Assembly: GCA_963796275.1 (NCBI GenBank)
Contig: CAWCKY010000006.1
Span: 192,001 to 256,000 of the forward strand
Reading direction: 5' to 3'
DNA from: an uncultured Acidobacteriota bacterium
GTDB taxonomy: Bacteria > Acidobacteriota > Blastocatellia > RBC074
DNA length: 64,000 bases
Each line of letters starts with the position of its first letter. The stretch's first letter is position 1. Of this stretch, positions 20,401-60,903 are shown piece after piece. The translations under genes were made by a program, and so were the position numbers. The notes beneath the pieces are model-generated. The model worked only from the letters and a program-made list of their open reading frames with translations. It was not told the origin of the DNA and made no database searches.

Positions 20401-23400
20401 AGCCGGCGCCTGGCGCGCCTTCCTGAAGGAGAGGGTGCCGGAGTACATGACGCCGTCGGCCTTCGTGACGCTCGACGCATTGCCGTTGACGCCGAACGGG
20501 AAGATCGATCGGCGCGCGCTTCCGGCTCCCGAAAAGGCGCGCCTCGACTTGGAGAGCGCCTTTGTCGCGCCGCGCAATCCGGTCGAGGAGTTGTTGGCGG
20601 AGACCTGGGCCAGTGTCCTCGGGGTGGAGAGAGTGGGAATTCACGATAACTTCTTCTCGCTGGGCGGACACTCATTGCTGGCCATGAAACTGATCACGCG
20701 AATGCGTGGGATCTTCCAGGTGGAACTGTCGCTGCGCCAACTTTTTGAAAAGCCGACGGTGGCGCAATTGGCGGCAGCGATCGTCGGGATGACGAAGCCC
20801 GGGCTGGATCTGCCGCCGATCACGCCGATCCCACGCGATCGGGAACTACCGCTCTCGTTTTCGCAGCAGCGGTTGTGGTTTCTCGATCAACTGGAGCCTG
20901 GCAACTCTTTCTACAACGTGCCCGCGCCGGTGCGCCTCACGGGCGAGCTCAATGTGGCGGCGCTCCGGCAAACCATTGGCGAAATCATCAGACGTCACGA
21001 AGTCTTGCGGACGGTCTATCAAACAGTCGAGGGGAGTCCGGTACAGGTGATCACAAACTCATACTCATTCACGCTGCCGGTGGTTGATTTGAGAGGGGTG
21101 GCGGAAGAGGAACGAGAGGCGACGGTCGCGCGTCTGGTCACGGAAGACTCCCTGCGGCCCTTCGATCTGGCCGAAGGCCCATTGTTCAGAGTCGCATTGC
21201 TGCAATTGGGGGCCGAGGATCATGTTTTGCTATTTACCACGCACCACATCATCTCCGACGTCTGGTCCAAGGGGGTGCTGACGCGAGAGGTTGCGGCGCT
21301 CTATCAGGCATTCGCCGAAGGAAGACCGTCGCCGCTGCCGGAATTGGCGGTTCAGTATGCCGATTTCGCGCACTGGCAACGGGGATGGTTGCAGGGAGAG
21401 GTTCTCGATGAGCAGTTGTCATACTGGAAGCGGCAATTGGCGGGCAGCCCATCAGTTTTGCAATTGCCCACGGATCGTCCGCGGCCAGCCGTTCAATCAT
21501 ATCGGGGGGCCGACCTGGCGATGGCGTTACCCGAAGGGCTGTCGCGGGCGGTGGTGGGATCTGAGCAGGCGCGAGGGCGTCACCCTCTTTATGACGCTGT
21601 TGGCGGCTTATCAAGCGATGCTGTTCCGCTACACAGGGGAGGAGAGCATCAATGTCGGCTCTCCCATCGCGGGCCGCACGCGCCCGGAGACGGAGGGGAT
21701 GATCGGGTTTTTCCTGAACACGCTGGTGTTCCGGACGGATTTTTCGGGCGACCCGAGCTTTCGCGAGTTGTTGCGGCAGGTGCGAGAGACATCGCTGGAA
21801 GCATACGCCCATCAGGATTTGCCCTTCGAGCAATTGGTAGAGGCGTTGCAACCTGAACGGAAGATGAGCCACTCGCCGCTGTTTCAGGCGGCCTTCGTGA
21901 TGCTCAATCTTGCAACGGAGGCGGTGGAGCTTCCGGGTCTGAAGATGCGGCCTGTGAGGGGGGAGGGAAATAGCGCGAAATACGATTTGACACTGTTCGT
22001 CATCGAAGGCCGCGATGGACTGACGGCGAACGTGGAGTACAGCGCCGATCTGTTCGAGGCCTCTACCATGGCGAGGATGTTGGAGCATTTCTTCGTGTTG
22101 CTGGAAGGCTTGATCGCCAACCAGGATCAGCGTGTGTCATCTCTGCCGCTGATGACCAGTGCGGAACGTAACCGCCTATTGTCAGAGTGGAATGGCACTG
22201 TGTCTGAGTATCCACGCCATGAATGCGTTCATGAGTTATTCGAGACGCAGGTTGAGCGTAGACCTGAAGCGATTGCGATAGTGGGCGAGGAAAATCACCT
22301 GACCTATGGAGAACTCAACCGACGCGCAAATCAACTGGCGCATTACCTGCTTAAGCATGGCGCCGGGCCGGAGACGCCGGTGGCTATCTGCGTTGAGCGT
22401 TCTTCGAAGATAGTTTTGGGATTCTTGGGCATACTTAAGGCGGGCGCCGCCTTTGCACCACTGGATCCAGCCTATCCTGAAGACCGCCTGGCCTTCATAC
22501 TCAATGATGTCCGGGCGCCGCTGCTCTTGACCCAGGAGCGGCTGGTCGAAGAATTACGAAACACCGGAAACGGAACGCACAATACGGAGAGTTATGCTCA
22601 AAACTCCATATTCAAACCTCAATACTCAATCTCCGATCTGCGCGCTGGAGACGGAAGGCGGAATGCGAGTAGTATCGCTCAAGACTCAATCTTCAATCCT
22701 CAAGACTCAATCTCCGATCTGCACGCTGGAGATGGAAGGCGGAATGCGAGTAGTATCGCTCAAGACTCAATCTTAATACCCCACCACCCAACCTCCGAAC
22801 CGCATTCCGCATTCCGCGTTCCCGAAGCGGTCTGTCTGGACTCAGACTGGGAGTTCATCGCCCTGGAAAGCCAGCAGAATCCAACCTGCATAGCTGCGCC
22901 TGAAAACCTGGCTTATGTCATCTATACCTCGGGTTCAACTGGCGCTCCTAAAGGTACGCCGATAACACACAGGAATCTCAGCCCACTAATGCACTGGAGC
23001 AAGGAATATTTCAACCTCGGCGAGTGCACGAAGGTACTGCAAAATCTCAACTGCTGTTTTGATTTTGGCGTTTTCGAGCTATTAACCACAGTCCTATTTG
23101 GCGGGACATTACATTTTGTGGATGGAGATGGGCTGAGTGATTTTTCAGAGTATGCCAGCTATATCAATAGACATCGAATTAATACCATTCATTCTACTCC
23201 GTCATTCGTTAGGAATCTTCTCCCTTTTAGTGATGAACTGGAGAATCTGGAAACGATTCACCTCGGCGGCGAGCCGTTAACGGGGGATTTGGTTGATAAG
23301 GTATTCAATAAAGTCGGAGGCGATTGCGTACTCTACAACGGCTACGGCCCTACTGAAGCCACCGTCAATTGTTCCATCTTTAGAATCGGTAATTGGTCAA

Positions 23401-24341
23401 CCTGGATTGATAGAGCTTTGACGAATATTCCGATTGGGAAAGCGTCAGCCAATAATCTTCTCTATATCCTCGATAAGAATTGCGAACCTGCGCCTATAGG
23501 TATCCCTGGAGAACTATATGTTGGCGGCGGAGGGTTGACTCGCGGCTACCTCGATCGAGCCGCGTTGACCGCCGAAGCATTCGTCCCCAACCCCTTCAGT
23601 CATGAACCAGGTGCGCGGCTATACAAGACTGGCGACCTGGCTCGATACCTGTCCGACGGGAACATAGAGTTCCTGGGCCGCAGCGACCATCAAGTCAAAG
23701 TCCGCGGCTTTCGTATCGAATTGGCGGAGATCGAAGCGGTATTGGCTCAACACCCGGCCGTCCGGGAAGCCGTCGTGTTGGCCCGCGAGGAGGTGGCCGG
23801 CGAGAAACGACTGGTGGCGTACGTCGCGCTCGATCCTATCGAGGGGGGCGCCGCGCCAAACGGCGTAAAACTGAGAAGCTACTTGCGGCAAAGGCTGCCT
23901 GAGTACATGACGCCGTCCGTCTTCGTCGAATTGGGCGCCCTGCCGCTGACGCCGAACGGGAAGGTGGATCGCCGTGCGCTTCCGGCTCCCGAGAAGACGC
24001 GCCCGGATTTGGAGAGCGCATTCGCCGCGCCTCGCAATCCAATAGAAGAAAAGCTGGCCGAAATCACCGCGCAGATTCTCCGGATCGAAAAGCCAGGGAT
24101 TCACGACAATTTCTTTGAATTGGGCGGGCATTCGTTATTGGCGACTCAGTTCATATCCCGCGTGCGCAACGCTTTCCAGGTGGAGTTGACTCTGCGGAGC
24201 GTTTTTACCGGACCCACGATCGCCGAACTTGCCGAAGCGATTGAGAAGGCCAGGGATGGCGGACTTGAGCCGGCCGCGCCCGCGATGAAAGCAATTCCCA
24301 GAGAGACAAGACGGGTCAAAACCACAACATTATCCAAATGA
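14425..24341 (+). CDS. Trimodular NRPS I-A-T-C-A-T-C-A-T, interrupted by two equivalent 1-nt frameshifts (~18355, ~21557)
   Basis: GFRLSPQQ / LPSLCAD I domain; three A domains (codes DFWHFGQVDK, DATQIALIDK, DFFHHGGVNK); three GGHSLL PCPs; two HHIISDVWS C domains. ORFs 14425-18654, 18089-21856 and 21291-24341 fuse if one G is removed from gtggtg(g)gatctg in each copy. Confidence 0.88.
15787..19347 (+). repeat. ~370-bp near-identical direct repeat (15787-16154 vs 18980-19347), A-domain N-terminus
   Basis: Both begin gtcgagtggaacgataccaaagttgaatatccg and run to cagcagcggctgctcga. Confidence 0.9.
16771..22157 (+). repeat. ~2.19-kb near-identical direct repeat (16771-18955 vs 19973-22157): A C-terminus, PCP and C
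   Basis: Constant 3202-bp offset; identical shadow ORFs in the ORF track; few differences, mostly in the PCP (IARKLEVF vs ITRMRGIF). Confidence 0.95.
22596..22774 (+). repeat. In-frame 81-bp tandem repeat (2 full copies plus partial) inside an A domain
   Basis: Units start at 22596, 22677, 22758; encode AQ[N/D]SIF.PQ.SISDL.AGDGRRNASSI. Confidence 0.9.
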
Positions 24342-25621
24342 ATAGAGGGCACAGGATGAGCGCCGCACAAGAAAACCGCCAAAGCTCCGTTTCGTTTTAT
24401 CTGGACGCAGTGGGGATGGCTTTGCAGGAGATATTGGCCCATAAACTGCGCGCCTTTTTGACTTTGATCGGGATCATCATCGGGGTGTCCTCAGTAGTGC
24501 TGGTGGGCGCCGCCATCAGCGGGCTGAACGCTTATATCTCGAAGCGGATTTCGGAACTGTTCGGGCCCAACCACTTCATGATTGCCCGGATCGCTTACGC
24601 GGGAAAGATAAGCCAGGAACGGTTGGAAGAGATGTCCCGTCGGAACAAGCAGATCGAGTGGGATGATTACGAGTGGCTGAAACGTCATTGCGCGTCGTGC
24701 GCCGAGGTTGGGGCGGCGGCCCGGCTTCGGGTTGATCTAGATCACGAGGGGCGGGAACTGACCGGCGCGTGGATCGTCGGCGTGACCGACAATATGAAGG
24801 ATATCGAGAACAAGACGATCGTTGACGGGCGTTTCATCGTCCCTCACGAAGTCGAACACGCCTCTCTCGTGTGTGTCATCGGAATGGACTTGCGTGAGAA
24901 GTTCTTCCCCGACCGCGATCCTCTCGGCCATACGATCAAGGTCAGCGGCTTGCCGCTGCGGATCGTGGGCGTGGAGAAGAGACGCGGGGCGTTTCTGGGC
25001 GATTCGATGGATAACCAGGCCTACATCCCGCTGACGACTTTCGGACGCTTGTTCGGCCGGCGGCTGAATTTGGAGCTGCATGGTCGCGCTGCGAATCGCG
25101 AAGAGCTCGACACGACGATAGAAGAGGCGCGTATGAGTATGCGTAACCGGCGCCAACTGGCGCCCGGTGAGGAGGACAATTTCGCCATTGCCAACGTGGA
25201 AGAACTCAGCACTCAAGTTGATCAGTTCACCAGAATCATCACCCTGGTGGTGACGCCTCTCACGCTCATCTCGCTCCTCGTGGGCGGGATCGTAATTATG
25301 AACATCATGCTGGTCAGCGTCACCGAGAGAACTTTCGAGATCGGACTGCGCAAGTCCATGGGCGCGCGGCGCAAACATATCCTGCTGCAATTTTTGATCG
25401 AATCGGCGCTGCTGGCTTTCTTGGGCGGAGTGTTGGGGTTGTCCCTCGCGGCCGCCGTCGCATGGATGATGAACGTGGCGACCACCGTGCCGATGAAGAT
25501 CACGCCTTTTTACATTATTCTGTCGCTTTTGGTTTCGGGAGGCATTGGATTGATCTTCGGCGTCTACCCCGCCTACAAGGCGGCGCGGCTTGATCCGATA
25601 GTGGCGTTGAACAAGGAATAA
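24338..25621 (+). CDS. ABC transporter permease, MacB/FtsX family
   Basis: LRAFLTLIGIIIGV; GGIVIMNIMLVSVTERTFEIGLRKSMGA; PAYKAARLDPI. Confidence 0.93.
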   Translation: MNRGHRMSAAQENRQSSVSFYLDAVGMALQEILAHKLRAFLTLIGIIIGVSSVVLVGAAISGLNAYISKRISELFGPNHFMIARIAYAGKISQERLEEMSRRNKQIEWDDYEWLKRHCASCAEVGAAARLRVDLDHEGRELTGAWIVGVTDNMKDIENKTIVDGRFIVPHEVEHASLVCVIGMDLREKFFPDRDPLGHTIKVSGLPLRIVGVEKRRGAFLGDSMDNQAYIPLTTFGRLFGRRLNLELHGRAANREELDTTIEEARMSMRNRRQLAPGEEDNFAIANVEELSTQVDQFTRIITLVVTPLTLISLLVGGIVIMNIMLVSVTERTFEIGLRKSMGARRKHILLQFLIESALLAFLGGVLGLSLAAAVAWMMNVATTVPMKITPFYIILSLLVSGGIGLIFGVYPAYKAARLDPIVALNKE

Positions 25622-25707
25622 AGTTGTTTAAGCAGTGAGGCGAAAGCTGCGCGGTAAAACCGTTACACCTTTGAAAATTTTGCCTGCGCACTTAAGAGGG
25701 GAAGAGC

Positions 25708-26961
25708 ATGAAGTCCTATAAATTTAGGTTAGGCGAAGCGGTCGTGATCGCGCTGGGCAGCGTGCGGGTGCACAAGTTCCGCAGCTTTCTGACCATTCTC
25801 GGGATCGTTATCGGAGTGATGACCGTGATCGTAGTCGCCTCGCTGCTCACCGGCATGCGCAAAAGCTTGGTGGGCCTGATAGAACAGTATGGCGCCAGCA
25901 ACATCTACGCATTCCACTATTCGACTGGGCCCAGTATCAGATCAAGGGATCGCAGCGAGATCAGACGAAAACCGCTGCGGCCGGAAGATGGCGAGGCGAT
26001 CCTCGCGCGGGCGGACGCGGTCGAGGATGTCGCTAACATCGGTTACGTCTCGCGAATAGATCGCACCCTAGGTTATCAGGGAGCGACTTACAAACGGGCG
26101 TACCTGCAGGGCGTCACGCCCAGTTATGCGCGAGTTGCCGGTCTGAATTTGCGGGAGGGGCGCTTCATAAATGAGCTTGATGACGTACACAGGCGCGACG
26201 TCATTGTCGTCGGCGTCAACGTGGTCGAAGCCCTCTTCCCGCATCTGAGCCGGATCGTCGGGCAGCGGATAGTTTTGAGCGGCAAGATATTTGAAGTTAT
26301 CGGCGTGCTGGAGCAGAGAAAGAGCGGCTTCTTCATCGAGAACGAGGAGGACAACGTCGCGTTCATCCCTTATCAGACAGCGCGTAAGTTGTCGCCTGAA
26401 GACGAGTCGTTGATGCTGATGATCCGCGCCAGGGCTGGAGAACTGAGGCAGGCGTTGAATCAGACCGAAGAGATTCTGCGCCGCCAGCGGGGAATCGGAT
26501 TCGACGAGCCGAACAATTTCGATCTGAAAACGGCGGACAGGTTCGCGGAGCAGTTCGACAACATCACGGGAACCGTGGGTCTGGTGGCTATCGCGATCTC
26601 CGGCATCTCGCTGCTGGTCGGCGGGATCGGGGTTATGAACATTATGCTAGTAACCGTGACGGAGCGCACGCGAGAGATCGGCATCCGCAAGGCTGTCGGA
26701 GCGCGCCGTCGTGACATCGCGGGGCAATTTCTGTTCGAAGCCATGACGTTGACTTCTCTGGGCGGAATACTGGGAGTCGCGCTCGCCTTGGCGATCAGCT
26801 CCGCCGCCAGACTTTTCCTCCCTGAGCTTCCGGCCTCGATACCTCTGTGGGCGGTCGGCGCCGGAGTAGCGGTCGCGACCGTTACGGGCCTCGTCTTCGG
26901 CGTCTGGCCGGCGAGGAAGGCTGCCCGTCTGGAACCGACTGAATGCCTGAGTTACGAATAA
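25708..26961 (+). CDS. ABC transporter permease, MacB/FtsX family
   Basis: [13 protein letters not shown]; [28 protein letters not shown]. Confidence 0.93.
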
Positions 26962-27011
26962 GTACCACATCAAGTAAGACTAAGTTATTCGATGTTTAGA
27001 TGGCGATTCGA

Positions 27012-27079
27012 TCAGTACCGCGAGCGGTAGCGAGCGGGTTGATTGCGAAAGATCCGCTCGCTACCGCTCGCGGTACTGA
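27012..27079. repeat. REP-like perfect hairpin
   Basis: tcagtaccgcgagcggtagcgagcgg ... ccgctcgctaccgctcgcggtactga. Confidence 0.85.
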
Positions 27080-27136
27080 TTCGCCGTTCATCAACTAAGC
27101 GTGTAGGCAAAAATTCTGAGGTGTGATCAAAATCAT

Positions 27137-30100
27137 ATGGATATTTCGGATCAGATTTCGGATCAGGATGTTTATGTCTTCCCAGCCTCTTTCGCACAGC
27201 GAAGGATGTGGTTCCTGGATCAATTCCAGCCCGGAAGCCCTTTCTACAATGTTCCAATGGCGGTTCGCATTAAAGGCGCGTTGCGCGTAGCTGCGCTGGA
27301 ACAGGTGATTAAGGAGATCGTCCGGCGGCACGAGTCCTTGCGCACCACTTTCGCCGTCATGGACGGCGAGCCGGTTCAGGTGATCCATAAAGACGGGCCG
27401 GCGATGGACATCGTCCTGGACCGAGTGGATATTCATCGTTTGCCGGCACCTGAGCGAGAGGCTGAAATCCATCGCCGGGTAATGGCGGAAGCTCAACTGC
27501 CTTTTAACCTCTCTGAAGGGCCTTTGTTGCGGGCGACGTTACTGAAACTGGGAGAGCGAGACCACGCGTTCCTGCTGACAATGCACCACATCGTCTCTGA
27601 CGCCTGGTCGCAGGGAGTCTTTATCCGGGAGATGGCGATTCTCTACGACGTGTTCTCCAAAGAGAAGCCATTGCCACTTCCCGATCTGCCTCTTCAATAC
27701 GCCGACTTCACGGAATGGCAGCGGGATTGGTTGCGGGGCGAGGTGATGGAGGCGCAGCTCAATTACTGGCGCGGGCGGTTGGGCGACAATCCTCCGCCGC
27801 TGATGCTTCCCACCGATTATCCTAGGCCGTCGGTGAATACCGCGCGCGGCGCCAAACTATCCCGCTCACTCTCGAAACCTCTGGCGAATACGCTGCAAAA
27901 GCTAAGCCGGCGCGAGGGCGCCACCCTGTTTATGACCTTGCTGGCTGCCTTCCAGGTTCTGCTGCATCGCTACACGGGCCAGGACGACATCAGCATAGGG
28001 ACGCCGGTCGCCAACCGCAACCGGGCCGAGATCGAAGGCCTGATCGGCTGTTTCATCAACACATTGGTTATGCGAACCAATCTCTCGGGCGATCCGAGCT
28101 TCCGCGAACTGTTGTGGCGCGCGCGTGAAGTGGCTCTAGGCGCTTACGCCCATCAGGACCTGCCTTTTGAAAAACTGGTTGAAGATCTCAAGCCCGAGCG
28201 GAATATGAGCCGCCAATCGTTCTTCCAAGTCATGCTAATTCTGCAGAACGTGCCCAGAAAGGTTGAAATCGGCGAGCATGGGCTGACGCTGAGCGTCTTG
28301 AAGATAGATAAGGGAACCTCGAACTTCGATCTGACCTTGACAATGGTGGAAGACTTCAAGGGGTTGATCGCGACGGCGGAATACAACACCGATCTTTTCG
28401 AAGCCGCGACCATCGAACGCCTGCTCCGACATTTTCAGACTTTGCTGGAAGGCGTTGTCGCCGACCCGGACCGGCGTATTTCAGATTTGCCCCTCCTGAA
28501 TGAGTCGGAGCAACGCCTGCTCTTGACCGCGTGGAATGATACAAGGGCGGCGTATCCGCGCAACAAATGCGTGCATGAGTTGTTCGAGGCGCAGGTGGAG
28601 CGAAGCTCCGACGCGATTGCGCTGGTGGTCGAGGAGGAGCAGCTTACCTACCGGGAGTTGAACCGCCGGGCCAATCAACTCGCCGCCTACCTCGGAAAGC
28701 TCGGGGTCGGGCCGGAAACGCCGGTGGGCTTTTGCCTGGAGCGTTCCCCGGAGATGGTCGTCGGTATCCTCGGCATCTTGAAGGCCGGTGGAACCTACGT
28801 GCCGTTAGACCCGGCGTATCCCAAAGAGCGCCTGGCCTTCATGCTGGAAGATACTCGGACGCCAGTGATCCTGACTCAGCAAAGGTTGATCGAGCACCTG
28901 CCGGAGCATCAGGCCAGTGTCGTTCGAATAGACGCAGACTGGGAATTGATGACAGAGGAGAGCGAGGCGAATCGGGCGAGCGGGGCGACAGCCGGTCATC
29001 TGGCCTACATCATGTACACTTCAGGCTCGACCGGCAGGCCGAAAGGGATCGCCATCCAGCACCGGGCCATCAACCGGCTGGTCTTCAATACCAACTACAT
29101 CGAGATAACGCCCGAGGACCGGATGCTGCTGGCGTCGAACTCGGCCTTCGACGCGGCGACCTTCGAGTTGTGGGGCGCGCTGCTGCACGGAGCGCGGCTA
29201 GTGGGGGTCAGCAGAGAGGCGGTCATATCGCCTCGGGAGCTCGCCGCCTCCATCCGGGATCACGGAATAAGCGCGATGTGGCTGACGGCGGCCCTCTTCA
29301 ATCAAATGACGCGCGAAGTCCCCAAGGCTTTCGGCGCCGTGAAACACCTGCTCATTGGGGGCGAGGCGCTTGATCCCCACCGGGTGCGAGAGGCGCTCAA
29401 GAATGACCCGCCCGCTCGGTTGGTGAACGGGTATGGGCCGACGGAGGGCACGACCTTCACTACCTGGTACCTGGCGCAAGAGGCGGCGGAAGGAGCGAGC
29501 TCCATTCCCATAGGTCGACCTATCTCTAACACGCAAACATATTTGTTGGATCGTAACCAACAGCCCACGCCCATAGGGATTGCGGGCGAGTTATACATCG
29601 GTGGGGATGGACTGGCGCGCGGTTATTTCAATAGGCCGGAGCTGACGGCGGAGAAGTTCGTCCCGAATCCATATAGCGAGCGGCCGGGCGCGCGGCTCTA
29701 CCGGACGGGAGACCTGGTCCGTTACCTGCCGGATGGCGCGATTGAGTTCCTGGGGCGGCTCGATCATCAGGTGAAGCTCCGCGGTTTCCGCATAGAGTTG
29801 GGCGAGATCGAGACCACGCTACAACAGCATCCGGCGATTCAGGAAGCAGTAATTCTGGCCAGGGAGGATGAGCCTGGTAATAAGCGCTTAGTAGCTTATC
29901 TAGTAAGCGTAGGGGATGCGGCGCCCACCATTGAGGAGTTGCACAGTTTTCTGCGGCAGAAACTGCCCTGGTATATGGCGCCGAGTGCTTATGTCTGGCT
30001 GGAGTCCCTGCCGGTGACTCCGAATGGGAAGATTGACCGGCGCGCCCTGCCCGCACCGGATAAGACGCGGCCGCAGTTGGAAGCAGCCTTCGTCGCGCCT

Positions 30101-30391
30101 CGCACCCCAACGGAAGAACAGTTGGCCGCAATCTACGCAGAGGTTCTGGGTCTTGAGCGAGTGGGCATCAGCGACCATTTCTTCGATCTTGGCGGTCACT
30201 CGCTGCTTGCCACGCAGGTGATTTCCCGCGTTCGTCAGTCTTTCGAGATAGAACTCCCTTTGCGCTCCCTCTTTGAAACTCCCACGGTAGCCGGACTTGC
30301 CGAAAACATTGAATCAATCCTGTGGGCGGCGCATCGCTCACAGTCCACCCTCGACTCCGCGGCAGATGACCGGGAAGAGGGAGAAATCTAA
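27137..30391 (+). CDS. NRPS module C(LCL)-A(Val)-PCP
   Basis: HHIVSDAWS; code DAFWLGGTFK (Val type); GGHSLLATQ; acidic docking tail DREEGEI. Confidence 0.93.
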   Translation: MDISDQISDQDVYVFPASFAQRRMWFLDQFQPGSPFYNVPMAVRIKGALRVAALEQVIKEIVRRHESLRTTFAVMDGEPVQVIHKDGPAMDIVLDRVDIHRLPAPEREAEIHRRVMAEAQLPFNLSEGPLLRATLLKLGERDHAFLLTMHHIVSDAWSQGVFIREMAILYDVFSKEKPLPLPDLPLQYADFTEWQRDWLRGEVMEAQLNYWRGRLGDNPPPLMLPTDYPRPSVNTARGAKLSRSLSKPLANTLQKLSRREGATLFMTLLAAFQVLLHRYTGQDDISIGTPVANRNRAEIEGLIGCFINTLVMRTNLSGDPSFRELLWRAREVALGAYAHQDLPFEKLVEDLKPERNMSRQSFFQVMLILQNVPRKVEIGEHGLTLSVLKIDKGTSNFDLTLTMVEDFKGLIATAEYNTDLFEAATIERLLRHFQTLLEGVVADPDRRISDLPLLNESEQRLLLTAWNDTRAAYPRNKCVHELFEAQVERSSDAIALVVEEEQLTYRELNRRANQLAAYLGKLGVGPETPVGFCLERSPEMVVGILGILKAGGTYVPLDPAYPKERLAFMLEDTRTPVILTQQRLIEHLPEHQASVVRIDADWELMTEESEANRASGATAGHLAYIMYTSGSTGRPKGIAIQHRAINRLVFNTNYIEITPEDRMLLASNSAFDAATFELWGALLHGARLVGVSREAVISPRELAASIRDHGISAMWLTAALFNQMTREVPKAFGAVKHLLIGGEALDPHRVREALKNDPPARLVNGYGPTEGTTFTTWYLAQEAAEGASSIPIGRPISNTQTYLLDRNQQPTPIGIAGELYIGGDGLARGYFNRPELTAEKFVPNPYSERPGARLYRTGDLVRYLPDGAIEFLGRLDHQVKLRGFRIELGEIETTLQQHPAIQEAVILAREDEPGNKRLVAYLVSVGDAAPTIEELHSFLRQKLPWYMAPSAYVWLESLPVTPNGKIDRRALPAPDKTRPQLEAAFVAPRTPTEEQLAAIYAEVLGLERVGISDHFFDLGGHSLLATQVISRVRQSFEIELPLRSLFETPTVAGLAENIESILWAAHRSQSTLDSAADDREEGEI

Positions 30392-30407
30392 TAAGTTCAG
30401 AGTAGAT

Positions 30408-33400
30408 ATGAAAACCATTGAGCTTCTGTCCCGCCTTCGCGGTCTCGACGTTAAACTTTGGACCGAGGCTGAACGACTGCGCTATAGCGCGCCTGACGGC
30501 GTGATAACACCGGCCCTGCGCGCGGAGATGGCTGAACGCAAGACGGATATTCTTGCATTTCTGCGCCGGGCGGAAGCGGCAGTGAAGCCCGCCGCTCCCG
30601 CCATCCTGCCGGTCTCACGCAATGGCGAGGCGCCGTTATCTTTCGCTCAGCAGCGGTTGTGGGTTCAAGAACAACTGTCACCAGGCAGCGCTCTCTACAA
30701 CATCTCCCAGGCAATTCAAGTGAATGGTGGGCTCAATGTAACCGCGCTCGAGCTAACTTTGAACGAGATCGTGCGGCGACACGAAATTTTGCGCACGACT
30801 TTCGCGGCGCCCGATTTCCAGGTGAGCGGAAATCCCGTTCAAGTTATCGTTCCAACGCTTCGTCTGGCGCTGCCGATAGTAGACCTCCAGGAATTCCGGG
30901 AGACGGAACGAGAGGCGGAAACCTGGCGTCTGGCCGCGAGTGAGGCCGGTCGGCCTTTCGATCTTTCCCGAGGGCCGCTCCTGCGCGCCGTCTTGTTGCG
31001 GCTGGGTCGGAAGCGCCACGTGGTTCTCTTCACCCTGCACCACATCATCAGCGACGGCTGGTCAATGGGCGTGCTGGCGCGAGAAATGGGAACGCTTTAC
31101 GAATCCTTCGCCGACGGCCGCCCTTCGCCATTGCCGGAGTTGCCTATCCAGTATGCGGACTTTGCGTACTGGCAGAGGCAATGGCTACAGGGAGAGACGC
31201 TCGCGGCTCAGCTCTCTTACTGGAGGCGGCATCTGGGGGGCGCCCCTGCCTCCCTGGAATTGCCTACGGATCGTCCGCGACCGGCGGTTCAAACCTTTCG
31301 GGGGGCGCATCAACCACTGGCGCTGTCCGCTACTTTATCCGGCTCGCTCAAGGAGCTAAGTCGCCGGGAAGGCGTGACGTTATTCATGACATTATTGGCA
31401 GCGTTCAATACGCTGCTCTATCGTTGCACGGGCCAGGAGGACATCGTTGTCAGCACGCCCACTGCAGGTCGCGCCAATGTCGAACTCGAAGGGTTGATTG
31501 GTTTCTTTATCAACAAGCTGATGCTGCGCGCCGATCTTTCGGGCGATCCGAGTTTCAGTGAATTGCTGGGTCGGGTGCGCGAGATGGTCTTGGGAGCATT
31601 CGCCAACCAGGACGTCCCATTCGAAAAACTGGTGGACGAACTACAGCCGGAGCGGGACCAAAGCCGCACGCCCTGGACTCAGACGGCATTCGTTTTACAG
31701 AGCGCCTCGACCGCATCGCTTGCGGCTCCGGGCCTGATCTTCAGCCCGCTAAAAATCGAAAGCGCGACGGCCAAGACGGATTTGATCCTATCTCTGTCGG
31801 AGCGCCCAGCCGGACTCCAAGGCTCGTTCGAGTTCAACACGGATATTTTCGAGGCTTCGACCATCGCTCGGATGGCCGGCCATTTCCAAACAATGTTGGA
31901 GAGCATCGTCGCTGACCCGGAGCAACGCATCTCGATGCTCGCTCCCTCGCCTGGGATGCTGTTATCTTCGGTCAAACCGTCCCGCATGGATGAACTCGAT
32001 CAACTCTACGCAGGCTCGAACCTGACAAAAAATCAGCTCCTGATCTGGACCGGGCAGAAATTAAGGCCGGATGCGCCAATCTACAACGCGGCGTTGTCCT
32101 TCGTTATCCAGGGTAAGATTTCGCTCGAGAACTTCCAGCGAGCGTTTCAGACGCTGGTCAATTCCAGCGACGCTTTGCGCACAGTGATCGAGGAGAGAGA
32201 CGGCGTCCCGCGGCAACGAGTCATCCCTGATCTACCCTACGCCGTCGAATACCTCGACTTTTCACAGAAAGTTGATCCTGAAGCGGAGTTTGATTCCTGG
32301 ATGTATCAACGACGTATTGCGCCGTTCGACTTCGCGAAACGCTTATTCGATACAGCCCTGATAAAGCTATCGGACGGGAAATTCGCCTGGTATCTAAATC
32401 AGCACCACATTATCTGTGACCATCAGTCGATCTGGTTGATCTTTCAACGGATGTCTGAATTCTACGGGCGCGCTCTGGAGGGGCGGTTGGAAGAGAAGGT
32501 GAAACTGCCCGTCTTTCAAGATTACCTGGATTACGAACGAGAGTATCGGAGCTCATTGCAGTATCTGAAATCAAGGGCCTATTGGGAGAGGAAACTAACC
32601 GACGAGCCTGAGCCGATTGCGTTCTATGGCAAAGTTCCTCATAAGCCGACGACGCGCATCCGACATGTGACTTATAAGCTGGATTCAGAACGAACACGAA
32701 AGCTTAAGGTCCTTGCGCTTTCCGCGGACGTCTTCGTGAAGACGGAGAAAGCATCGCTGTTTAATGTATTGGCCGTGGTTCTTGGGGTCCATCTCTATCA
32801 CATCAGTGGAAGCCGGCGCTTTTCGCTCGGAGTCGCGTCTCACAATCGTCGTTCGGAGGCATTCACAGAGACGATCGGCGTTCTCATGGAGGTTCATCCG
32901 CTGTACCTGGCGATTGAGGGCGACGATACGTTCCTTTCGTTGGTTAAAAAAGTGGCGGCCGAAGCACGAGAAACCCTAAAGCATAGCGAATTCATTATCA
33001 GTAAGAAGGCTTATGACGTATTTCTCAACTACCGTACAGCGAAATTTTCCGAGTTCGATGGCGCGCCGGCGCATCTGAAGAGGATTCACTCCGGACACGA
33101 AACTGACAGCTTAACCCTCAATTTGCACGAGGACGCTTCAACTGGAAACTTCGTTCTGGGTTTCGATTTTCATTGCGATGTTTTCAACGAGGAGCAGCGG
33201 AGCCATACGATTCAATGCTTTCTCAAAATTTTGGATTCTTTTTTGGAGGATCGTACGCAATCAATAGATCGTGTTGATCTTCTCTCGGCTGAGGAGAGAC
33301 AACGCATCCTGGTCGGGTTCAATCATAAAGAAGTGATATTTCCCGAAGACCAGACCATCACACGACTCTTTGAAAAGCAGGTCGAAGAAACGCCGGCGAA

Positions 33401-33497
33401 AATCGCCGCAGTTTACCAGGACGTTTCTCTGACTTTTCAGGAGTTAAACGAACAGGCGGATAAGTTAGCTAATTTGATCAGGAGGTTAAATAAATGA
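30408..33497 (+). CDS. NRPS: TubC-type N-terminal docking domain - C(LCL) - atypical second C domain - N-terminal stub of an A domain
   Basis: MKTIELLSRLRGLDVKLW...LRYSAP; HHIISDGWS; WYLNQHHIICDHQS; ends after the A1 motif LTFQELNEQADKLA. ATG 30408 preferred over TTG 30297. Confidence 0.88.
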   Translation: MKTIELLSRLRGLDVKLWTEAERLRYSAPDGVITPALRAEMAERKTDILAFLRRAEAAVKPAAPAILPVSRNGEAPLSFAQQRLWVQEQLSPGSALYNISQAIQVNGGLNVTALELTLNEIVRRHEILRTTFAAPDFQVSGNPVQVIVPTLRLALPIVDLQEFRETEREAETWRLAASEAGRPFDLSRGPLLRAVLLRLGRKRHVVLFTLHHIISDGWSMGVLAREMGTLYESFADGRPSPLPELPIQYADFAYWQRQWLQGETLAAQLSYWRRHLGGAPASLELPTDRPRPAVQTFRGAHQPLALSATLSGSLKELSRREGVTLFMTLLAAFNTLLYRCTGQEDIVVSTPTAGRANVELEGLIGFFINKLMLRADLSGDPSFSELLGRVREMVLGAFANQDVPFEKLVDELQPERDQSRTPWTQTAFVLQSASTASLAAPGLIFSPLKIESATAKTDLILSLSERPAGLQGSFEFNTDIFEASTIARMAGHFQTMLESIVADPEQRISMLAPSPGMLLSSVKPSRMDELDQLYAGSNLTKNQLLIWTGQKLRPDAPIYNAALSFVIQGKISLENFQRAFQTLVNSSDALRTVIEERDGVPRQRVIPDLPYAVEYLDFSQKVDPEAEFDSWMYQRRIAPFDFAKRLFDTALIKLSDGKFAWYLNQHHIICDHQSIWLIFQRMSEFYGRALEGRLEEKVKLPVFQDYLDYEREYRSSLQYLKSRAYWERKLTDEPEPIAFYGKVPHKPTTRIRHVTYKLDSERTRKLKVLALSADVFVKTEKASLFNVLAVVLGVHLYHISGSRRFSLGVASHNRRSEAFTETIGVLMEVHPLYLAIEGDDTFLSLVKKVAAEARETLKHSEFIISKKAYDVFLNYRTAKFSEFDGAPAHLKRIHSGHETDSLTLNLHEDASTGNFVLGFDFHCDVFNEEQRSHTIQCFLKILDSFLEDRTQSIDRVDLLSAEERQRILVGFNHKEVIFPEDQTITRLFEKQVEETPAKIAAVYQDVSLTFQELNEQADKLANLIRRLNK

Positions 33498-34816
33498 TTC
33501 GAAACAGGCAATATGTAATCAAAAGATCAGAGCTCCAGTCCATTGAGGCTTTGCCCGAGGTGATTGGAAAAATGTTAGGCGACAAGGCTCTCCGCTGGTA
33601 CATCGGCCAAGTTACCGATGACGAAATCGTCGTTGAAGCGACGATTTGCGATGAACGGATCGGCCATTTCAGCGAATCGGTGGTCGCTCACCATTATCCG
33701 GGTAAAAGCGTCGTTCTAAGCATTATCCCGACCGGCGTCGGTTGTAATCTCGGCGGCTACGCCGGCGATGCCGCGCCAGCCACCAGCTTGCTGGCCTCGA
33801 CCGCGGACTATTTGATCACGAATCCCAACGCAGTCAATGCTTCGGACTTTATCAAGATGGATGACAATGTCGTCTACACCGAAGGCTTCTCAATCGACCT
33901 ATTTTGTCAGGGGCTCGTTAATCTGTACCGGCCATACTCAAACAGAGTCGGTCTGATCATTGAAAAAACGGTTGCCAGCGGGCTGGACGTCGTTTTCAAC
34001 ATTCTCAACGCGGTGAGAGCGACGCACGGAGTCGATATCCAGGATTACGTGATCACGGACCAGCCAATTGGCGGACGCTGCGTCGAGAACAATGTCGGAG
34101 CGTTTGTCGGAACGATTGATAACCCCGGCGTATTGTTTGAAGCTTGCGAAAAACTGATAGCAAAAGGCGTTGACGCTATTGCTGTCACGAGCAATATTCA
34201 AGACTTGCCCGCGGAAAACTATGCGAAGCATTTCGCCGGCGAGTATCCAAACCCCGTCGGCGGCGTTGAAGCGGTCATCTCACACTTGATTACCAAGCGA
34301 TTTCAGGTACCTGCGGCTCACGGGCCACTGCTGAATATAAAGCAGCTGGACCTGGCGCGTAACATAGTTGACGCCAGGGGAGCCGGCGAGATGGCGTCTC
34401 TAAGCGGCCTGGCTTGCGTGTTGATCGGCCTGAAAAGAGCGCCGCAGATCACGCCTCGGCCGGATAGCCGTGTCGCGGACATAATCAATATCAATAACCT
34501 CCTGGCGATAGTGACACCGGCGGGTTGTCTGGGAAGCATTCCCGTGCTCTCCACGAGGAAATACAAGATACCCGTAATTGCCGTCCGGGAGAATGAAACG
34601 ATCTTGAATATTACTCAGTCAATGGTTCGGTTGAATAACGTTGTCGAGGTAAGCAACTACGCCGAAGCCGCCGGCATCATCCTGGCTTTGAAGAAGGGGA
34701 TAAGTCTCGAAGGCATATCAAGACCTTTACGAACATTGAGACATTCGGTTGGAGCGGAGAGTCAGGATCAGCTGAGCGGGAGGGGGGATGCTTATGAGGA
34801 ACAACTCGTCGCATAG
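33494..34816 (+). CDS. DUF3326-family protein of unknown function
   Basis: IPTGVGCNLGGYAGDA, NPNAVN, GGVEAVISH, CVLIGLKRAP, VIAVREN, NYAEAAG match the family pattern as I recall it; overlaps both neighbours. Confidence 0.8.
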   Translation: MIRNRQYVIKRSELQSIEALPEVIGKMLGDKALRWYIGQVTDDEIVVEATICDERIGHFSESVVAHHYPGKSVVLSIIPTGVGCNLGGYAGDAAPATSLLASTADYLITNPNAVNASDFIKMDDNVVYTEGFSIDLFCQGLVNLYRPYSNRVGLIIEKTVASGLDVVFNILNAVRATHGVDIQDYVITDQPIGGRCVENNVGAFVGTIDNPGVLFEACEKLIAKGVDAIAVTSNIQDLPAENYAKHFAGEYPNPVGGVEAVISHLITKRFQVPAAHGPLLNIKQLDLARNIVDARGAGEMASLSGLACVLIGLKRAPQITPRPDSRVADIININNLLAIVTPAGCLGSIPVLSTRKYKIPVIAVRENETILNITQSMVRLNNVVEVSNYAEAAGIILALKKGISLEGISRPLRTLRHSVGAESQDQLSGRGDAYEEQLVA

Positions 34817-37800
34817 TTTGATCGGACTGATGGCCGACCGGCGTCCCGATCTGTTAATAGGGATGCTTGGAATATTGAAGTCCGGAAGCGGTTTTGCGCC
34901 GATAGATCCGGATTATCCGGACGAACGGATCAATTACATCATTGACGACTGCCGGATCGAGATTCTGGTCACAGAAGAAAAACGCCTGGCCAGGGCGATT
35001 GAAATCTCCAGGAAAAGCCCTACGCTGAAGAATATTATCTGCCTGGATAAGGTGAGGAGGAAGGAGGCTGCCCATCGCGATGAGGTTCAGATTTACGATT
35101 GTAACGATTATGCCGCCAAAGAACGGGCGCCGGAAAAGTGCGACGTAGAGCCTGATCAGTTGGCCTATGTGATCTATACCTCAGGGTCGACCGGCGTTCC
35201 CAAAGGCGTTCCGATCACACATAGAAATCTCAGCCCGTTGTTATGCTGGAGCAAGGAATATTTCAACCTCGGCGAATGCACGAAGGTACTGCAAAATCTC
35301 AACTACTGCTTTGATTTCGGAGTCTTCGAGTTACTAACTACTGTCCTTTTCGGTGGAACATTACATTTCGTGGACAGAGATGAGTTGAGCGATTTTGCGG
35401 AGTATGCCGGCTATATCGATAAACACAGAATCAATACCATCCACTCCACTCCGTCATTTTTTAGAAATCTTCTTACCTTTAGTGACAAGCTGGAGAGTCT
35501 GGAAACGCTCCACCTGGGTGGTGAGCCATTAACCGGGAACATGGTTGATGAGGTATTTAACAAAGTCGGAAGCGGCTGTGTTCTATACAACGGCTATGGT
35601 CCTACTGAAACAACCATCAATTGTTCCATCTTTGAGGTCGGCAATAGGTCAGCCTGGAAGGATAAGGCTTTCGCGAATATCCCGATCGGGAAGCCGTCGG
35701 CCAATAATTTGATCTATATCTTAAACAAGGGATGCGAACCTGCGTTGCCCGGCGCGCCGGCAGAACTTTATGTTGGCGGCGCCGGATTGGCTTACGGTTA
35801 TCTCAATCGAGCTGATCTCACTGCCGAACGCTTCGTCCCCAACCCCTTTAGCAAAGAACCGGGCGCTCACATGTACCGAACCGGGGACCTGGCTCGCTAT
35901 ATGCCCAACGGCGCCATCGAGTTTTTAGGTCGCATCGACGACCAGGTGAAGGTGCGCGGCTTCCGCATTGAACTGGGAGAGATTGAATCGGCGTTGAGTG
36001 GGCATCCCGCCGTTCAAGAAACGGTGGTTATGGCCCTAGGGGGCGTGGACGGCAATAAGCGCCTGGTGGCTTACCTCGTTCCTAAATCGGAGGTTGTGCC
36101 GGCCATCAGCGAGCTGCGTAGTTTTCTACAAGAGAAGCTGCCCGAGTATATGATGCCCTCAGCTTATGTTTTTCTCGGCGCCTTGCCGCTGACGCCCAAC
36201 GGCAAGGTGGATAGGCGAGCTTTGCCGGAACCCGATCAGACTCGACCGGAGTTGGCTAATCACTTGGTCGCCCCACGCGACCGGAAAGAGGAAATCCTGG
36301 CTGAGATTTGGGCAGAGGTCATCGGCGTCGAGCGAGTGGGCGTCTACGATAACTTCTTCGAGTTGGGCGGAGATTCCATGAAAAGCATTCAGGTGGTGGC
36401 CCGCGCCAACCGGGTGGGACTCCACTTCACACCCGCCCAGTTGTTCCAGCATCCCACGATTGCAAAGTTGGTTCAGTCAGCTGGCGCTTCTGAACCAACA
36501 CGGGCGGAACAGGGCATCGTCACGGGGCCGGTTCCGCTGACGCCGATTCAGCGCTCCTTCTTTGAACGGCAATTGGTGGATCCGCATCACTGGAATTGGT
36601 CCTTCCTGCGCGAAACGCCGCAACCTTTGAATCCCGCGCTGCTGGAACAGGCCATCAAGCATTTGCTCGGCCATCATGACGCATTGCGCTTGCGGTTCTA
36701 TCACTCAGAGTCAGGCTGGCGGCAATTCAACCACGGTTTAGATGAAAGCGCGCCTTTAACATTCATTGATCTGTCGCAGTTTGGACGTGAAGAACAGGTC
36801 GCGGCCCTGGAATCCACTGCCGCCGCGCTGCAGGGCAGTTTGAACCTTTCGGAAGGGCCATTGATGCGTGTGGCCTACTTCATGATGGGCGGAAAGCAGA
36901 CTGATCGCGCGTTGCTGATCTTCCACCATCTGGCGGTTGATGTGGTTTCAGCCCACATCCTGATGGAAGACTTCCAGACGATCTATCGGCAACTCAGTCT
37001 CGGTGAAGCGGTCGAACTCCCGCCCAAGACGACCTCTTTCCGCCAATGGTCGTTGCGGTTGGCCGAGCATGCGCAATCGAGTGAGTTGAAACAGGAGTTG
37101 AGTTACTGGATGGAAAGTTTGAGCGGCGAAAGACCGTCTTTACCACTCGATTACCCGACGGGCGTTAACAGCGAGGCTTCGTCCGCAGCGGTTTTGACCG
37201 CGTTCAGCGTGGATGAGACGCGGACGCTGTTGCAGGAGCTGCCGGCGGCTACCGGCGCACGGATGCAGGATTTCTTGCTGACGGCGCTCACCCGGTCGTG
37301 GGCGCGGTGGACGGGGCAGCAGCGGCTGCTCGTTGATGTAGACGGGCACGGGCGCGAATACATACTGGATGACGTGGACCTCTCGCGGACAGTGGGCTGG
37401 TTTACGAGCGTCTATCCAATGTTGTTGGACATTGGTGACGCGGCTGAGCCGGGCGAGGCGCTGCGTATTATTCAAGCGCAAATGCGGCGCGTTGCGAATC
37501 GGGGAATCGGCTTTGGTCTGTTGCGCTATCTCTGCGATGACGAGGAAGTGAGAAGGCGAATGAGCGCGGCGCCGCGAGCCGAAGTGAATTTCAATTTTCA
37601 GGGACAGCTTGATCAGCTTGATCAGCAGGGGGCCAATCGCAATGGTATGTCATTCCGGCAGGCGCGGGAAAACAAGGGACCGGAGCGGAGCTTGAGAGGG
37701 CAGAGGAGTTATCGGCTCTATGCAGTGGGGAATGTGCGTGGCGGGGTGTTGAGTATGCGCTGGAGCTACAGCGCGAACCTGCACAAGCGGAGCACGATCG

Positions 37801-37859
37801 AACGCCTGGCCGCGAGTTTCGCTAAGGAATTGCGGCGTCTGATCGCACACTGTCTCTAG
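34788..37859 (+). CDS. NRPS: remainder of split A domain - PCP - terminal (degenerate) E domain
   Basis: Starts just before A2 (GILKSGSGFAPIDPDYP); code DFFHHGGINK; GGDSMKSIQ; HHLAVDVVS, DGHGRE, RTVGWFT, FNFQGQ; SD gggaggggg before ATG. Confidence 0.9.
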   Translation: MLMRNNSSHSLIGLMADRRPDLLIGMLGILKSGSGFAPIDPDYPDERINYIIDDCRIEILVTEEKRLARAIEISRKSPTLKNIICLDKVRRKEAAHRDEVQIYDCNDYAAKERAPEKCDVEPDQLAYVIYTSGSTGVPKGVPITHRNLSPLLCWSKEYFNLGECTKVLQNLNYCFDFGVFELLTTVLFGGTLHFVDRDELSDFAEYAGYIDKHRINTIHSTPSFFRNLLTFSDKLESLETLHLGGEPLTGNMVDEVFNKVGSGCVLYNGYGPTETTINCSIFEVGNRSAWKDKAFANIPIGKPSANNLIYILNKGCEPALPGAPAELYVGGAGLAYGYLNRADLTAERFVPNPFSKEPGAHMYRTGDLARYMPNGAIEFLGRIDDQVKVRGFRIELGEIESALSGHPAVQETVVMALGGVDGNKRLVAYLVPKSEVVPAISELRSFLQEKLPEYMMPSAYVFLGALPLTPNGKVDRRALPEPDQTRPELANHLVAPRDRKEEILAEIWAEVIGVERVGVYDNFFELGGDSMKSIQVVARANRVGLHFTPAQLFQHPTIAKLVQSAGASEPTRAEQGIVTGPVPLTPIQRSFFERQLVDPHHWNWSFLRETPQPLNPALLEQAIKHLLGHHDALRLRFYHSESGWRQFNHGLDESAPLTFIDLSQFGREEQVAALESTAAALQGSLNLSEGPLMRVAYFMMGGKQTDRALLIFHHLAVDVVSAHILMEDFQTIYRQLSLGEAVELPPKTTSFRQWSLRLAEHAQSSELKQELSYWMESLSGERPSLPLDYPTGVNSEASSAAVLTAFSVDETRTLLQELPAATGARMQDFLLTALTRSWARWTGQQRLLVDVDGHGREYILDDVDLSRTVGWFTSVYPMLLDIGDAAEPGEALRIIQAQMRRVANRGIGFGLLRYLCDDEEVRRRMSAAPRAEVNFNFQGQLDQLDQQGANRNGMSFRQARENKGPERSLRGQRSYRLYAVGNVRGGVLSMRWSYSANLHKRSTIERLAASFAKELRRLIAHCL

Positions 37860-37940: not shown

Positions 37941-39293
37941 ATGGAGCAAATTAAACAGAAGACTGTAATAGTAAATTTGATCGCAAGTATGACCGCCTTT
38001 GAACCGGTTGCAGCGCCGGCGAGAGAGAAGACCGCGCCGGCGCGTCCTGACAAGCTGCTGAATCGAAATTTCGTTTTACTCTGGATGGGGCAGGCCGTCA
38101 GTCAATTGGGCTCGCAGGTCTATGTGATAGCGATGATGTTCTGGATCAAACACGCCACCGACTCCGCCAGTTTGATCGGGTCAATGATGATGCTCTCCAG
38201 CATTCCGAATGTGATTCTCAGCGGGATCGGCGGCGCATTCGCCGACCGCCATTCTCGCCGCAAAATCATCGTTTGCAGCGATCTGTTGAGAAGCGGTCTC
38301 GTTCTCTCAATGGCGGGACTGCTCTATCTGGCGCCTAACGCCACGGATACCATCATTGTCTGGTTCATGGGAGTGACGTTTTGCATGTCCGCCACGGCGG
38401 CGTTTTTTACTCCGGCGATGTCGGCCGCGATTCCCGACCTGACGCCGCAGAGCGCAATTGGAAAGGCGAACTCATTACGCCAAACCACCGCGCAGTTGGC
38501 CATATTTATCGGGCAAGGGTTGGGCGGGATGCTTTTTCGCCTTTTGGGGGCGCCGTTGCTCGTTTTGGTCAACGGCTTGAGCTTTCTGTTTGCCGCCGTC
38601 AGCGAATCCTTCATCAGAATTCCCCAGAAGATCCCGGAAAGGAGCGGCGGGCGAAAAGAGCGATTCGCCGCCTTCAAGAAGGAGATTGCGGAAGGATTGC
38701 GTTACGTATGGAAAGGGCCGGGGCTGAGACGGCTCTTTTTCTTTTCGGCTATCTTCAACTTTTTCACCATGCCGGTCGTCGTGCTTCTACCTTTTTACGT
38801 GGAGGATTTTCTAAAGCTACGAGTTGATTGGTATGGCTATTTGATCGCGACCTTCGGAGTTGGCGTACTGACGGGGGCATTATCCACCGGCTTCGTCAAG
38901 CTGAGGGGGAAAGTTCGCGGGAGATTGATGATCTGGTTTGCGATCTTCAACTCTCTGATCGTCGGGGCACTCGGTTTTGTTCCCGACGTGAAGGTCGCGC
39001 TTATTCTCGCGTTTCTGATGGGTGCGCTCGGTTCGTTCAACGGGATCAACATTGCGACGATCCTGCAATTGAGTACGCCGAGCGAGATTCGCGGGCGCGC
39101 ATTCGGATTGCTGCACACACTTTCGGGCAGTCTCGCACCGATCGGCATGGGGCTGGGTGGCTTCATGTACGACCTGGTAAATCAAGATATCACGCTCATC
39201 TATGCGGGATGCGGCGTGGTCATGGTTTTGTTATCACTCTTGGTCTCAATGAGCCGCGAATTCCGGGAATTTCTGGCTTACGAGCCGCAATAG
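37941..39293 (+). CDS. MFS efflux transporter (DHA3/EntS-like)
   Basis: [40 protein letters not shown]; about 12 TM segments; true start may be slightly downstream. Confidence 0.88.
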
Positions 39294-39304
39294 AAGGAGG
39301 AAAA

Positions 39305-60745: not shown

Positions 60746-60903
60746 AAATTCTCCCTCAATTATCAAATACGTGTGGTGGGAATTTTTTGTTGAAGACTCT
60801 CAGCCACTATCCCGTTAAAGACATCGTTCCCATTACCTGCGGATTCGAGAGAGCGCAAACCATCCCGATCCACAATATATTGTGTTGCCGTGTTGAGTCG
60901 GAC

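Follow-up and report, generated by a model that had tools for sequence, protein, structure and literature searches.

We analysed a window of 64,000 nt from an uncultured Acidobacteriota bacterium (contig CAWCKY010000006.1, positions 192,001 to 256,000; G000:C6:192001-256000), all of which falls within a very large nonribosomal peptide synthetase (NRPS) region on the forward strand. The system in question comprises two adenylation (A) domains of this region that share a pocket code and a gene of the DUF3326 family that stands inside the coding region of one of them. Five complete A domains occur between 14.4 and 37.9 kb of the window, with the pocket codes, in order, DFWHFGQVDK, DATQIALIDK, DFFHHGGVNK, DAFWLGGTFK and DFFHHGGINK. 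The third, hereafter copy 1, is unsplit and belongs to module 3; the fifth, copy 2, is divided between two open reading frames (ORFs) with the DUF3326 gene between them (Table 1).

Two adenylation domains with a common pocket code

The original prediction, made by eye from this DNA, had placed two closely paralogous A-domain cores at ~22900-23470 and ~35160-35730 and described them as richer in AT than their flanks. The coordinates were right, every motif string quoted for them is present, and the two copies are 79% identical in amino acid sequence over a 213-residue core. By BLASTP, the module-3 ORF and the downstream ORF of copy 2 share 68% identity over 451 residues, from motif A3 into the thiolation (T) domain, and just 41% over 54 residues in the A2 region. 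A codon-aligned sliding window located a pocket block in which the copies share 0.67-0.97 of amino acids, 0.74-0.87 of nucleotides and 0.50-0.77 of third positions; outside this block they drop to about 0.7 and, at third positions, 0.43-0.53. GC content is 0.45 and 0.46 in the two blocks and 0.48 and 0.56 at third codon positions (GC3), compared with about 0.6 and about 0.7 in the adjoining NRPS sequence and a genome GC of 0.543. The AT-richness is thus real and lies partly at synonymous sites.

Pocket positions were placed through the A4, A5 and A10 anchors, following what we take to be the numbering of GrsA (1amu, matched among PDB entries at E 8.5e-62). The mapping returned the code that had been read by eye, DFFHHGG[V/I]NK, with valine in copy 1 and isoleucine in copy 2. 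Both copies carry the marks of NRPS A domains, namely PF00501 and PF13193 matches, motifs A3 (TSGSTGxPKG) and A5 (NxYGPTE) and the A10 lysine, and both have K at the tenth code position. Of 81 A-domain matches across the 9.46-Mb genome, none but these two has the code, whose sharing is therefore not due to chance. Searched as 10-mers, 8-mers and 7-mers, the code was not found in the searchable literature, supplementary tables not covered, and within the same scope no characterised specificity was found to correspond to it.

Module 3 is a chimera. It is 90.6% identical in nucleotides to module 2 from 21000 to 22549 (blastn), and from 22898 it matches copy 2 instead; an 81-nt tandem repeat, which is translated, sits at the junction. 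Because identity switches in this way from module 2 to copy 2, module 3 represents a duplicated module in which A3-A10 has been replaced by sequence of the copy 2 type, an exchange through which it would have gained its present specificity. The pocket block, at about 80-87% nucleotide identity between the copies, stands above the rest of this segment, which suggests later homogenisation or a second exchange. An orthologue at another locus (L055) is 81% identical to copy 2, against 79% for copy 1, so the copy is not recent. The proposal that a subdomain had been imported and then copied into a second module is therefore upheld in outline, except that the transferred segment reaches from A3 to A10 and is not confined to the pocket, and that the event is old.

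A comparable pattern is visible in modules 1 and 2 (15787-18000 and 18980-21202), which are 96-97% identical in nucleotides on either side of a pocket block of about 530 nt. The differing tracts, 16155-16677 and 19348-19879, encode DFWHFGQVDK and DATQIALIDK, respectively. The two modules thus show subdomain exchange in situ.

A split domain, its DUF3326 gene and their distribution

Copy 2 is assembled from two ORFs, the upstream one covering positions 1-41 of the AMP-binding hidden Markov model (HMM) and the downstream one positions 47-384. Between the two pieces lies the DUF3326 ORF, which is read in a different frame and has a separate start and stop (the latter at 34814-34816). Its ATG overlaps the TGA of the upstream ORF (stop at 33495-33497) in an ATGA arrangement, with AGGAGG 8 nt to the 5' side, and its 3' end shares 29 nt with the next ORF. 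The gene is present in a single copy in the genome, and its product is a full-length match to PF11805 (301.2 bits against a cut-off of 25; residues 75-406 aligned with positions 3-334 of the 337 in the profile). DUF3326 had been described as embedded in one copy; the gene does lie inside copy 2, and there is more to the arrangement, in that the gene occupies a conserved break and the A domain is spread over two proteins.

A one-genome-per-species scan yielded 245 DUF3326 relatives, of which the best 80 loci from genome contigs were kept for all locus counts. An A domain lies in the flanks of 40 of the 80, and the code, in the form DF[F/W/M/Y][H/N]HGG[V/I]NK, is present in 30 of these. By an ORF-plus-motif rule, the split recurs in 17 of the 30 code-bearing loci: the upstream ORF ends after the A1 helix, DUF3326 follows, and the downstream ORF opens with A2. 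An adjacent tblastn match to the first piece (A_N) added three further loci (L012, L025 and L027), bringing the total to 20 of 30. In 17 aligned loci, A_N terminates at the identical position, immediately behind the A1 helix. The remaining ten loci comprise three that are cut by contig ends, one that has no A_N (L069) and six in which the clade A domain lies elsewhere. Among these six, the order is permuted in L003 and L005, where the remainder of the A domain (A_dN) comes first, as [A_dN-T][C-A_N][DUF3326] (C, condensation domain), and an unsplit A domain of this type lies upstream of DUF3326 in Herpetosiphon (L013 and L015) and in L042. A second gene can share the break, encoding either a LanB_N-like protein (PF04738; L027, 11286-13859, and L044) or a penicillin amidase (L049, 11299-13713, and L052). 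L024 and L029, as well as L049, which is cut by a contig end, have a C-A_N gene and DUF3326 with no A_dN gene after them; the remainder of the domain may be encoded at another place in these genomes.

With apparent frameshifts elsewhere in the NRPS of the window (near 18347, 21549 and 4513-4688), one could suspect that the split arose in assembly or marks a pseudogene in decay, and that the shared code is a relic. We give this hardly any credence: loci from Acidobacteriota, Thiomargarita, Cytophagia, Parvularcula, Aminicenantes and other sources are cut at one and the same point, their flanking ORFs are intact, and in the window all three ORFs are open. In the most frequent layout, the one seen in the window, the A domain is made as two polypeptides, the first about 45 residues forming the tail of the upstream C-domain protein and A2-A10 opening the next protein, with DUF3326 translationally coupled within the break. 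We infer from the conserved anatomy that the pieces reassemble non-covalently and thereby dock the two synthetase proteins. A complex prediction with A_N, A_dN and DUF3326 as partner scored 0.00 against a mark of 0.32, without controls, and speaks neither for nor against binding.

The position of its gene, exactly in the break and coupled on both sides, would also suit DUF3326 as a structural or activating partner of the split domain, such as an MbtH-like helper or clamp, and not as an enzyme of monomer synthesis. This strikes us as very improbable: the protein retains 60-65% identity across phyla with many invariant polar residues, occurs in cyanobacteria without any NRPS and stays beside an unsplit A domain in Herpetosiphon, while other genes can occupy the same break and the window already holds an MbtH-like gene.

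The code-bearing domains form a lineage of their own. Among 147 A domains placed in a tree (drawn from the loci, the window and the genome), all 30 group in an exclusive clade with a support of 0.988 and a stem of 0.31. One odd domain alone is sister to this clade, and Leu- and Glu-like domains branch next. The first code position, Asp235, which marks an α-amino acid substrate, is kept in 30 of 30 members. We searched 401 genomes of one family with a profile of the clade core, independently of DUF3326. Hits above 300 bits were confined to the centre genome (G401) and two others (G591 and G741), and DUF3326 exceeded its cut-off in exactly these three, adjoining the clade A domain on the same contig. 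The lone borderline match (G602, 192 bits) has the code DAWDFGVVDK and no DUF3326. No genome with the clade and without DUF3326 was found among these 401, with 7-16 first-look candidates scored per genome. The clade search, with candidates limited in the same way, returned 0 hits in 400 other genomes of the phylum of the window and 0 hits in 180 other genomes of the class of G403; because the clade is rare there, neither sample tests whether it occurs without DUF3326.

Co-occurrence had been set beforehand as the test of the proposed link, and it proved strong both ways, in 30 of the 40 A-bearing loci and in the same three of 401 genomes; within the sampling limits of 401, 400 and 180 genomes, the clade was not common without DUF3326. 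The clade is tied to DUF3326 across many bacterial phyla, and the system formed by the split, the clade and DUF3326 is real, widespread and undescribed. Scanning metagenomes with the core of the clade and generic A-domain motif patterns gave a best match of 38% identity and no clade member among the matches listed, a result that carries no weight either way. In a profile search of 1.84 billion representatives, the ranking adds up all A domains of giant synthetases, and its top 150 are uninformative on the clade.

Two further observations concern the loci themselves. A further unassigned code, of the type DPRH[LQ]VLRAK, occurs downstream of the cassette in four loci (L005:13211, L062:14796, L064:14560 and L074:14501), in three of them directly in the module after the clade module. 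One metagenome-assembled genome (MAG) has three DUF3326 copies (L026, L036 and L064), two in split cassettes and one without an NRPS; L026 and L036 are nearly identical in the DUF3326 tree.

Table 1. Parts of the two A domains, the split cassette and adjoining genes, in window coordinates.
Feature	Position	Strand	Basis
Module-3 ORF: C-terminal half of C domain (after frameshift), unsplit A domain (copy 1), T domain	21291..24341	+	Pfam Condensation, AMP-binding, AMP-binding_C, PP-binding
Tandem repeat with an 81-nt unit, 2.2-2.5 copies at 88-92% matches, within the copy 1 A2-A3 loop	22596..22798	+	Tandem Repeats Finder
Copy 1 A3-A10 segment of the DFxHHGG clade, code DFFHHGGVNK	22898..24012	+	74% nucleotide identity to 35150-36255
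Pocket block of copy 1, from A3 to about A6, with high identity and low GC	22896..23480	+	
TubC-type docking domain, C domain, second C domain (C', MxcG/EntF-like), first split-A piece	30297..33497	+	Pfam TubC_N, Condensation x2, AMP-binding 1-41; NCBIfam
A_N: strand and helix of motif A1 from the split A domain; last residues ...LANLIRRLNK, followed by a stop	33369..33494	+	Residues 1025-1064 = AMP-binding HMM 1-41
DUF3326 gene, 440 aa	33494..34816	+	PF11805, 301 bits
Remainder of split A domain (A2-A10, copy 2, DFFHHGGINK), T domain, epimerization-like C-terminal condensation-family domain	34788..37859	+	AMP-binding HMM 47-384, AMP-binding_C, PP-binding, Condensation
Copy 2 pocket block	35148..35732	+	Codon-aligned window scan, GC
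MFS exporter gene (MFS/EntS-like)	37941-39293		
MbtH-like protein gene, 3' of the MFS exporter gene	39209..39892	+	PF03621, 73.7 bits

DUF3326 and the candidate monomer

DUF3326 homologues remain 60-65% identical across very distant bacteria, with Cys84, His246, His276, Asp293, Arg295 and Glu299 as invariant polar residues. An AF2 model (pLDDT 80.5) gave 0 Foldseek matches in the PDB at E <= 0.001, the top partial hits being generic flavodoxin- or Rossmann-like folds. A profile search found one chance match among PDB sequences (E 0.19), no NCBIfam family matched, and the ESM Atlas returned no usable match. A role as a pyridoxal 5'-phosphate (PLP) enzyme was rejected, as no lysine is invariant. 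The name DUF3326 occurs in three papers of the searchable literature; we found no mention of PF11805 and no link between DUF3326 and NRPSs there, supplementary tables not covered. The only member that we found with experimental data is PavB of the pavettamine operon; according to the accessible part of that preprint, PavB and PavA, a Rieske-decarboxylase fusion, are both needed for a secondary-amine polyamine intermediate (bioRxiv 10.64898/2026.06.12.731819). PavB belongs to the same Pfam family as the DUF3326 protein of the window, a family that, on this account, handles amino compounds in specialised metabolism. It differs in having a Rieske-decarboxylase fusion as its partner and no NRPS.

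Copies of DUF3326 do not sort by setting in their tree, those of NRPS loci, sbnAB operons and NRPS-free cyanobacterial loci being interleaved, which we take as a sign of one conserved reaction on a free metabolite; the presence of DUF3326 beside an unsplit clade A domain in Herpetosiphon lends further support. We consider it reasonably probable, on balance, that a dedicated A-domain clade and a DUF3326 enzyme work together, the split A domain loading a non-proteinogenic monomer that DUF3326 makes. DUF3326 would produce this amino acid as a free metabolite for the clade A domains, and in the window it would enter the peptide twice, through module 3 and through the last module.

Alternatively, the substrate of the clade domains might be an ordinary amino acid, such as Glu, Gln, Thr, Ser or His, and DUF3326 might tailor the carrier-bound residue or the finished peptide. 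Beside the Leu- and Glu-like neighbours in the tree, other trans-acting tailoring genes stand next to DUF3326, LanB_N-like in L027 and L044 and CmlA-like β-hydroxylases in L027, L044, L069 and L075. We regard this as unlikely, given that the pocket defines an exclusive clade on a long stem and is not nested in a known specificity, and that the interleaving of cyanobacterial, sbnAB-linked and NRPS-linked copies points to a free small molecule as the substrate of DUF3326.

As to the identity of a DUF3326-made monomer, gene order offers a lead. The genes sbnA and sbnB, which encode L-2,3-diaminopropionate (L-Dap) synthase, lie directly upstream of DUF3326 in seven of the 80 loci, with an sbnA fragment in an eighth. 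Five of those seven have serA after sbnAB, in the order sbnA-sbnB-serA-DUF3326 in L028, L030 and L037; in L038 and L045, an extra gene separates serA from DUF3326. The genome of the window encodes both enzymes in overlapping ORFs (G000:C6:167859-169945) in the same NRPS region, 57 kb upstream of DUF3326, and both exceed their equivalog-type NCBIfam cut-offs (SbnA, 442.8 bits against 349.95 for TIGR03945; SbnB, 409.8 bits against 326.9 for TIGR03944). In Herpetosiphon aurantiacus, an sbnA/sbnB pair lies about 50 kb upstream of DUF3326, in a cluster with Asp-type modules and a TauD homologue. SbnA exceeds its cut-off in 15 of 24 other cassette genomes (the genomes of five loci fall outside this count), against a background of 59 of 401 genomes of one family, or 56 of 398 without the three cassette genomes.

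The pocket itself bears on the form in which L-Dap could be loaded. The diamino-acid pockets described in the accessible text of a sulfazecin study all use acidic residues, as in the SulM A3 code DVWEMNADD, where two Asp grip the side-chain amine (PMC12042044). At code positions 4, 8 and 9, one of which would be expected to be acidic, the clade has H, V/I and N, and nothing acidic is present beyond Asp235. Free L-Dap was rejected as the substrate on these grounds, as judged against the pockets set out in that source. With His, His and Asn in the pocket and no acidic residue, a Dap whose side-chain amine is masked is favoured. Our leading guess, which we hold tentatively and at less than even odds, is a monomer of Dap origin in which the amine is masked to a neutral or anionic group; L-Dap from SbnA and SbnB of the same cluster would be the precursor.

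Upstream of the window, G000:C6:164943-171086 encodes a NodU/CmcH-type carbamoyltransferase, an OTC/ATC-type carbamoyltransferase, SbnA, SbnB and TauD. This gene content suggests that β-ureidoalanine or another carbamoylated Dap may be made in the pathway. As a general explanation, the carbamoyltransferase route was rejected, since the other cassettes have no counterpart nearby except for a 33%-identical hit in L066; β-ureidoalanine is for this reason a local candidate only.

The sbnA-sbnB-serA-DUF3326 order of three loci would also fit a DUF3326 that merely supplies a precursor, for example O-phospho-L-serine for SbnA, with the clade A domains loading O-phosphoserine or L-Dap. Staphyloferrin clusters have their own serine kinase, SbnI, and a phosphate could fit into a pocket of His, His and Asn with two Gly. 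Even so, this seems distinctly improbable to us: the lack of an invariant Lys in DUF3326 speaks against a PLP aminotransferase, and SbnA went undetected in 9 of 24 cassette genomes. The free-Dap pockets described in the available text of PMC12042044 need acidic residues, and the preprint, in the part accessible, ties PavB to secondary-amine formation and not to phosphorylation (bioRxiv 10.64898/2026.06.12.731819).

Several points weigh against a DUF3326-made, Dap-derived monomer loaded by a dedicated clade. The background rate for SbnA comes from one family only, counts related genomes that are not independent and takes in G762 and G686, which are flagged unpublished. The nine cassette genomes in which SbnA was not found are mostly incomplete MAGs or drafts, and because of them a Dap origin is either not universal or unproven. 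The clade pocket agrees at six of ten positions with what we take to be the Thr (DFWNIGMVHK) and Glu (DAWHFGGVDK) codes, an agreement that also favours an ordinary amino acid. The direction from A domain to DUF3326 rests on two non-centre genomes of a family sample whose members are likewise not independent, and with just 7 to 16 candidates scored per genome, clade copies in NRPS-rich genomes can escape. DUF3326 lacks the clade in its flanks in 50 of 80 loci, so the dependence is one-way. Finally, the fold search on DUF3326 gave no functional clue.

With these points in mind, we advance a wider proposal with caution, and think it somewhat more doubtful than sound. DUF3326 may be a new amino-acid-forming family whose product, possibly an N-β-substituted L-Dap, would be a new building block. 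The A1/A2 break would then be a gene slot hosting a monomer-making and sometimes a tailoring gene, the halves of the A domain would dock the synthetases, and cyanobacteria without an NRPS would make the same metabolite.

Around the two A domains, the window encodes two MacB-type permeases, an HlyD/ABC pair, a type II thioesterase and a C-TauD fusion. The two MacB/FtsX-type permease genes (24338-26961) lie between NRPS genes on the same strand, and further MacB-type genes occur at 58343-63585. The ORF at 9401-11806 fuses a condensation-like domain to a TauD dioxygenase, near Asp-type A domains (DLTK[IV]GHVG), a pairing that suggests β-hydroxy-Asp and a siderophore-like product. Apparent +1 frameshifts interrupt C domains at 18347 and 21549, in identical GGTGGTGGGATC context in two repeat copies, and a third frameshift (4513-4688) falls within an Asp-type A domain. 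Either the assembly erred at homopolymers or genuine lesions were copied along with the repeat.

Relation to known systems

A clade with a fixed, unassigned code that extends from Acidobacteriota to Chloroflexota, Pseudomonadota and Actinomycetota is a gap in NRPS substrate prediction, and the products of clade-bearing clusters are now mispredicted at the clade position. The strict genetic coupling provides a first testable functional handle on DUF3326, a family also present in cyanobacteria, and Herpetosiphon aurantiacus DSM 785 is a cultured entry point. Like the staphyloferrin B pathway, the cluster of the window has bona fide SbnA and SbnB, and several DUF3326 genes are found in sbnAB operons.

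Exchange of A-domain subdomains is said to have been presented as a natural route to new specificity by Cruesemann in 2013, Kries in 2015 and Baunach in 2021. The differing pocket block of modules 1 and 2 and the switch in module 3 between 22549 and 22898 resemble this process; module 3 departs from it in that the foreign tract reaches A10 and an 81-nt tandem repeat marks the junction. In interrupted A domains, methyltransferase (M), ketoreductase (KR) or oxidase domains are inserted in frame between a2-a3 or a8-a9. The split cassette likewise encodes an auxiliary enzyme within the A-domain coding region, but there DUF3326 forms an independent ORF at the A1/A2 site, read in a different frame from its own start to its own stop.

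The closest parallel is the corallorazine NRPS Crz1/Crz2 (Dreckmann et al. 2024, PMC11342130), whose A domain is, as described in the accessible text, encoded on two genes and works only with both proteins. In that account, the Crz split falls at the A8-A9 (Acore/Asub) hinge, beside an N-methyltransferase domain. As in the window, one A domain is encoded on two genes, but here the cut comes after the A1 helix, about 45 residues in (HMM position 41/47 of 384), and not at A8-A9. Moreover, in contrast to Crz as reported there, the break in the clade is occupied by a free-standing gene, or by two, and a single pocket code goes with the split. A cut at A1/A2 with free-standing genes in the break is described for neither the Crz-type split nor interrupted A domains. 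It constitutes a second natural way to cut an A domain, distinct from the one published case, and suggests the A1/A2 site as a new candidate for engineering split or docked synthetases.

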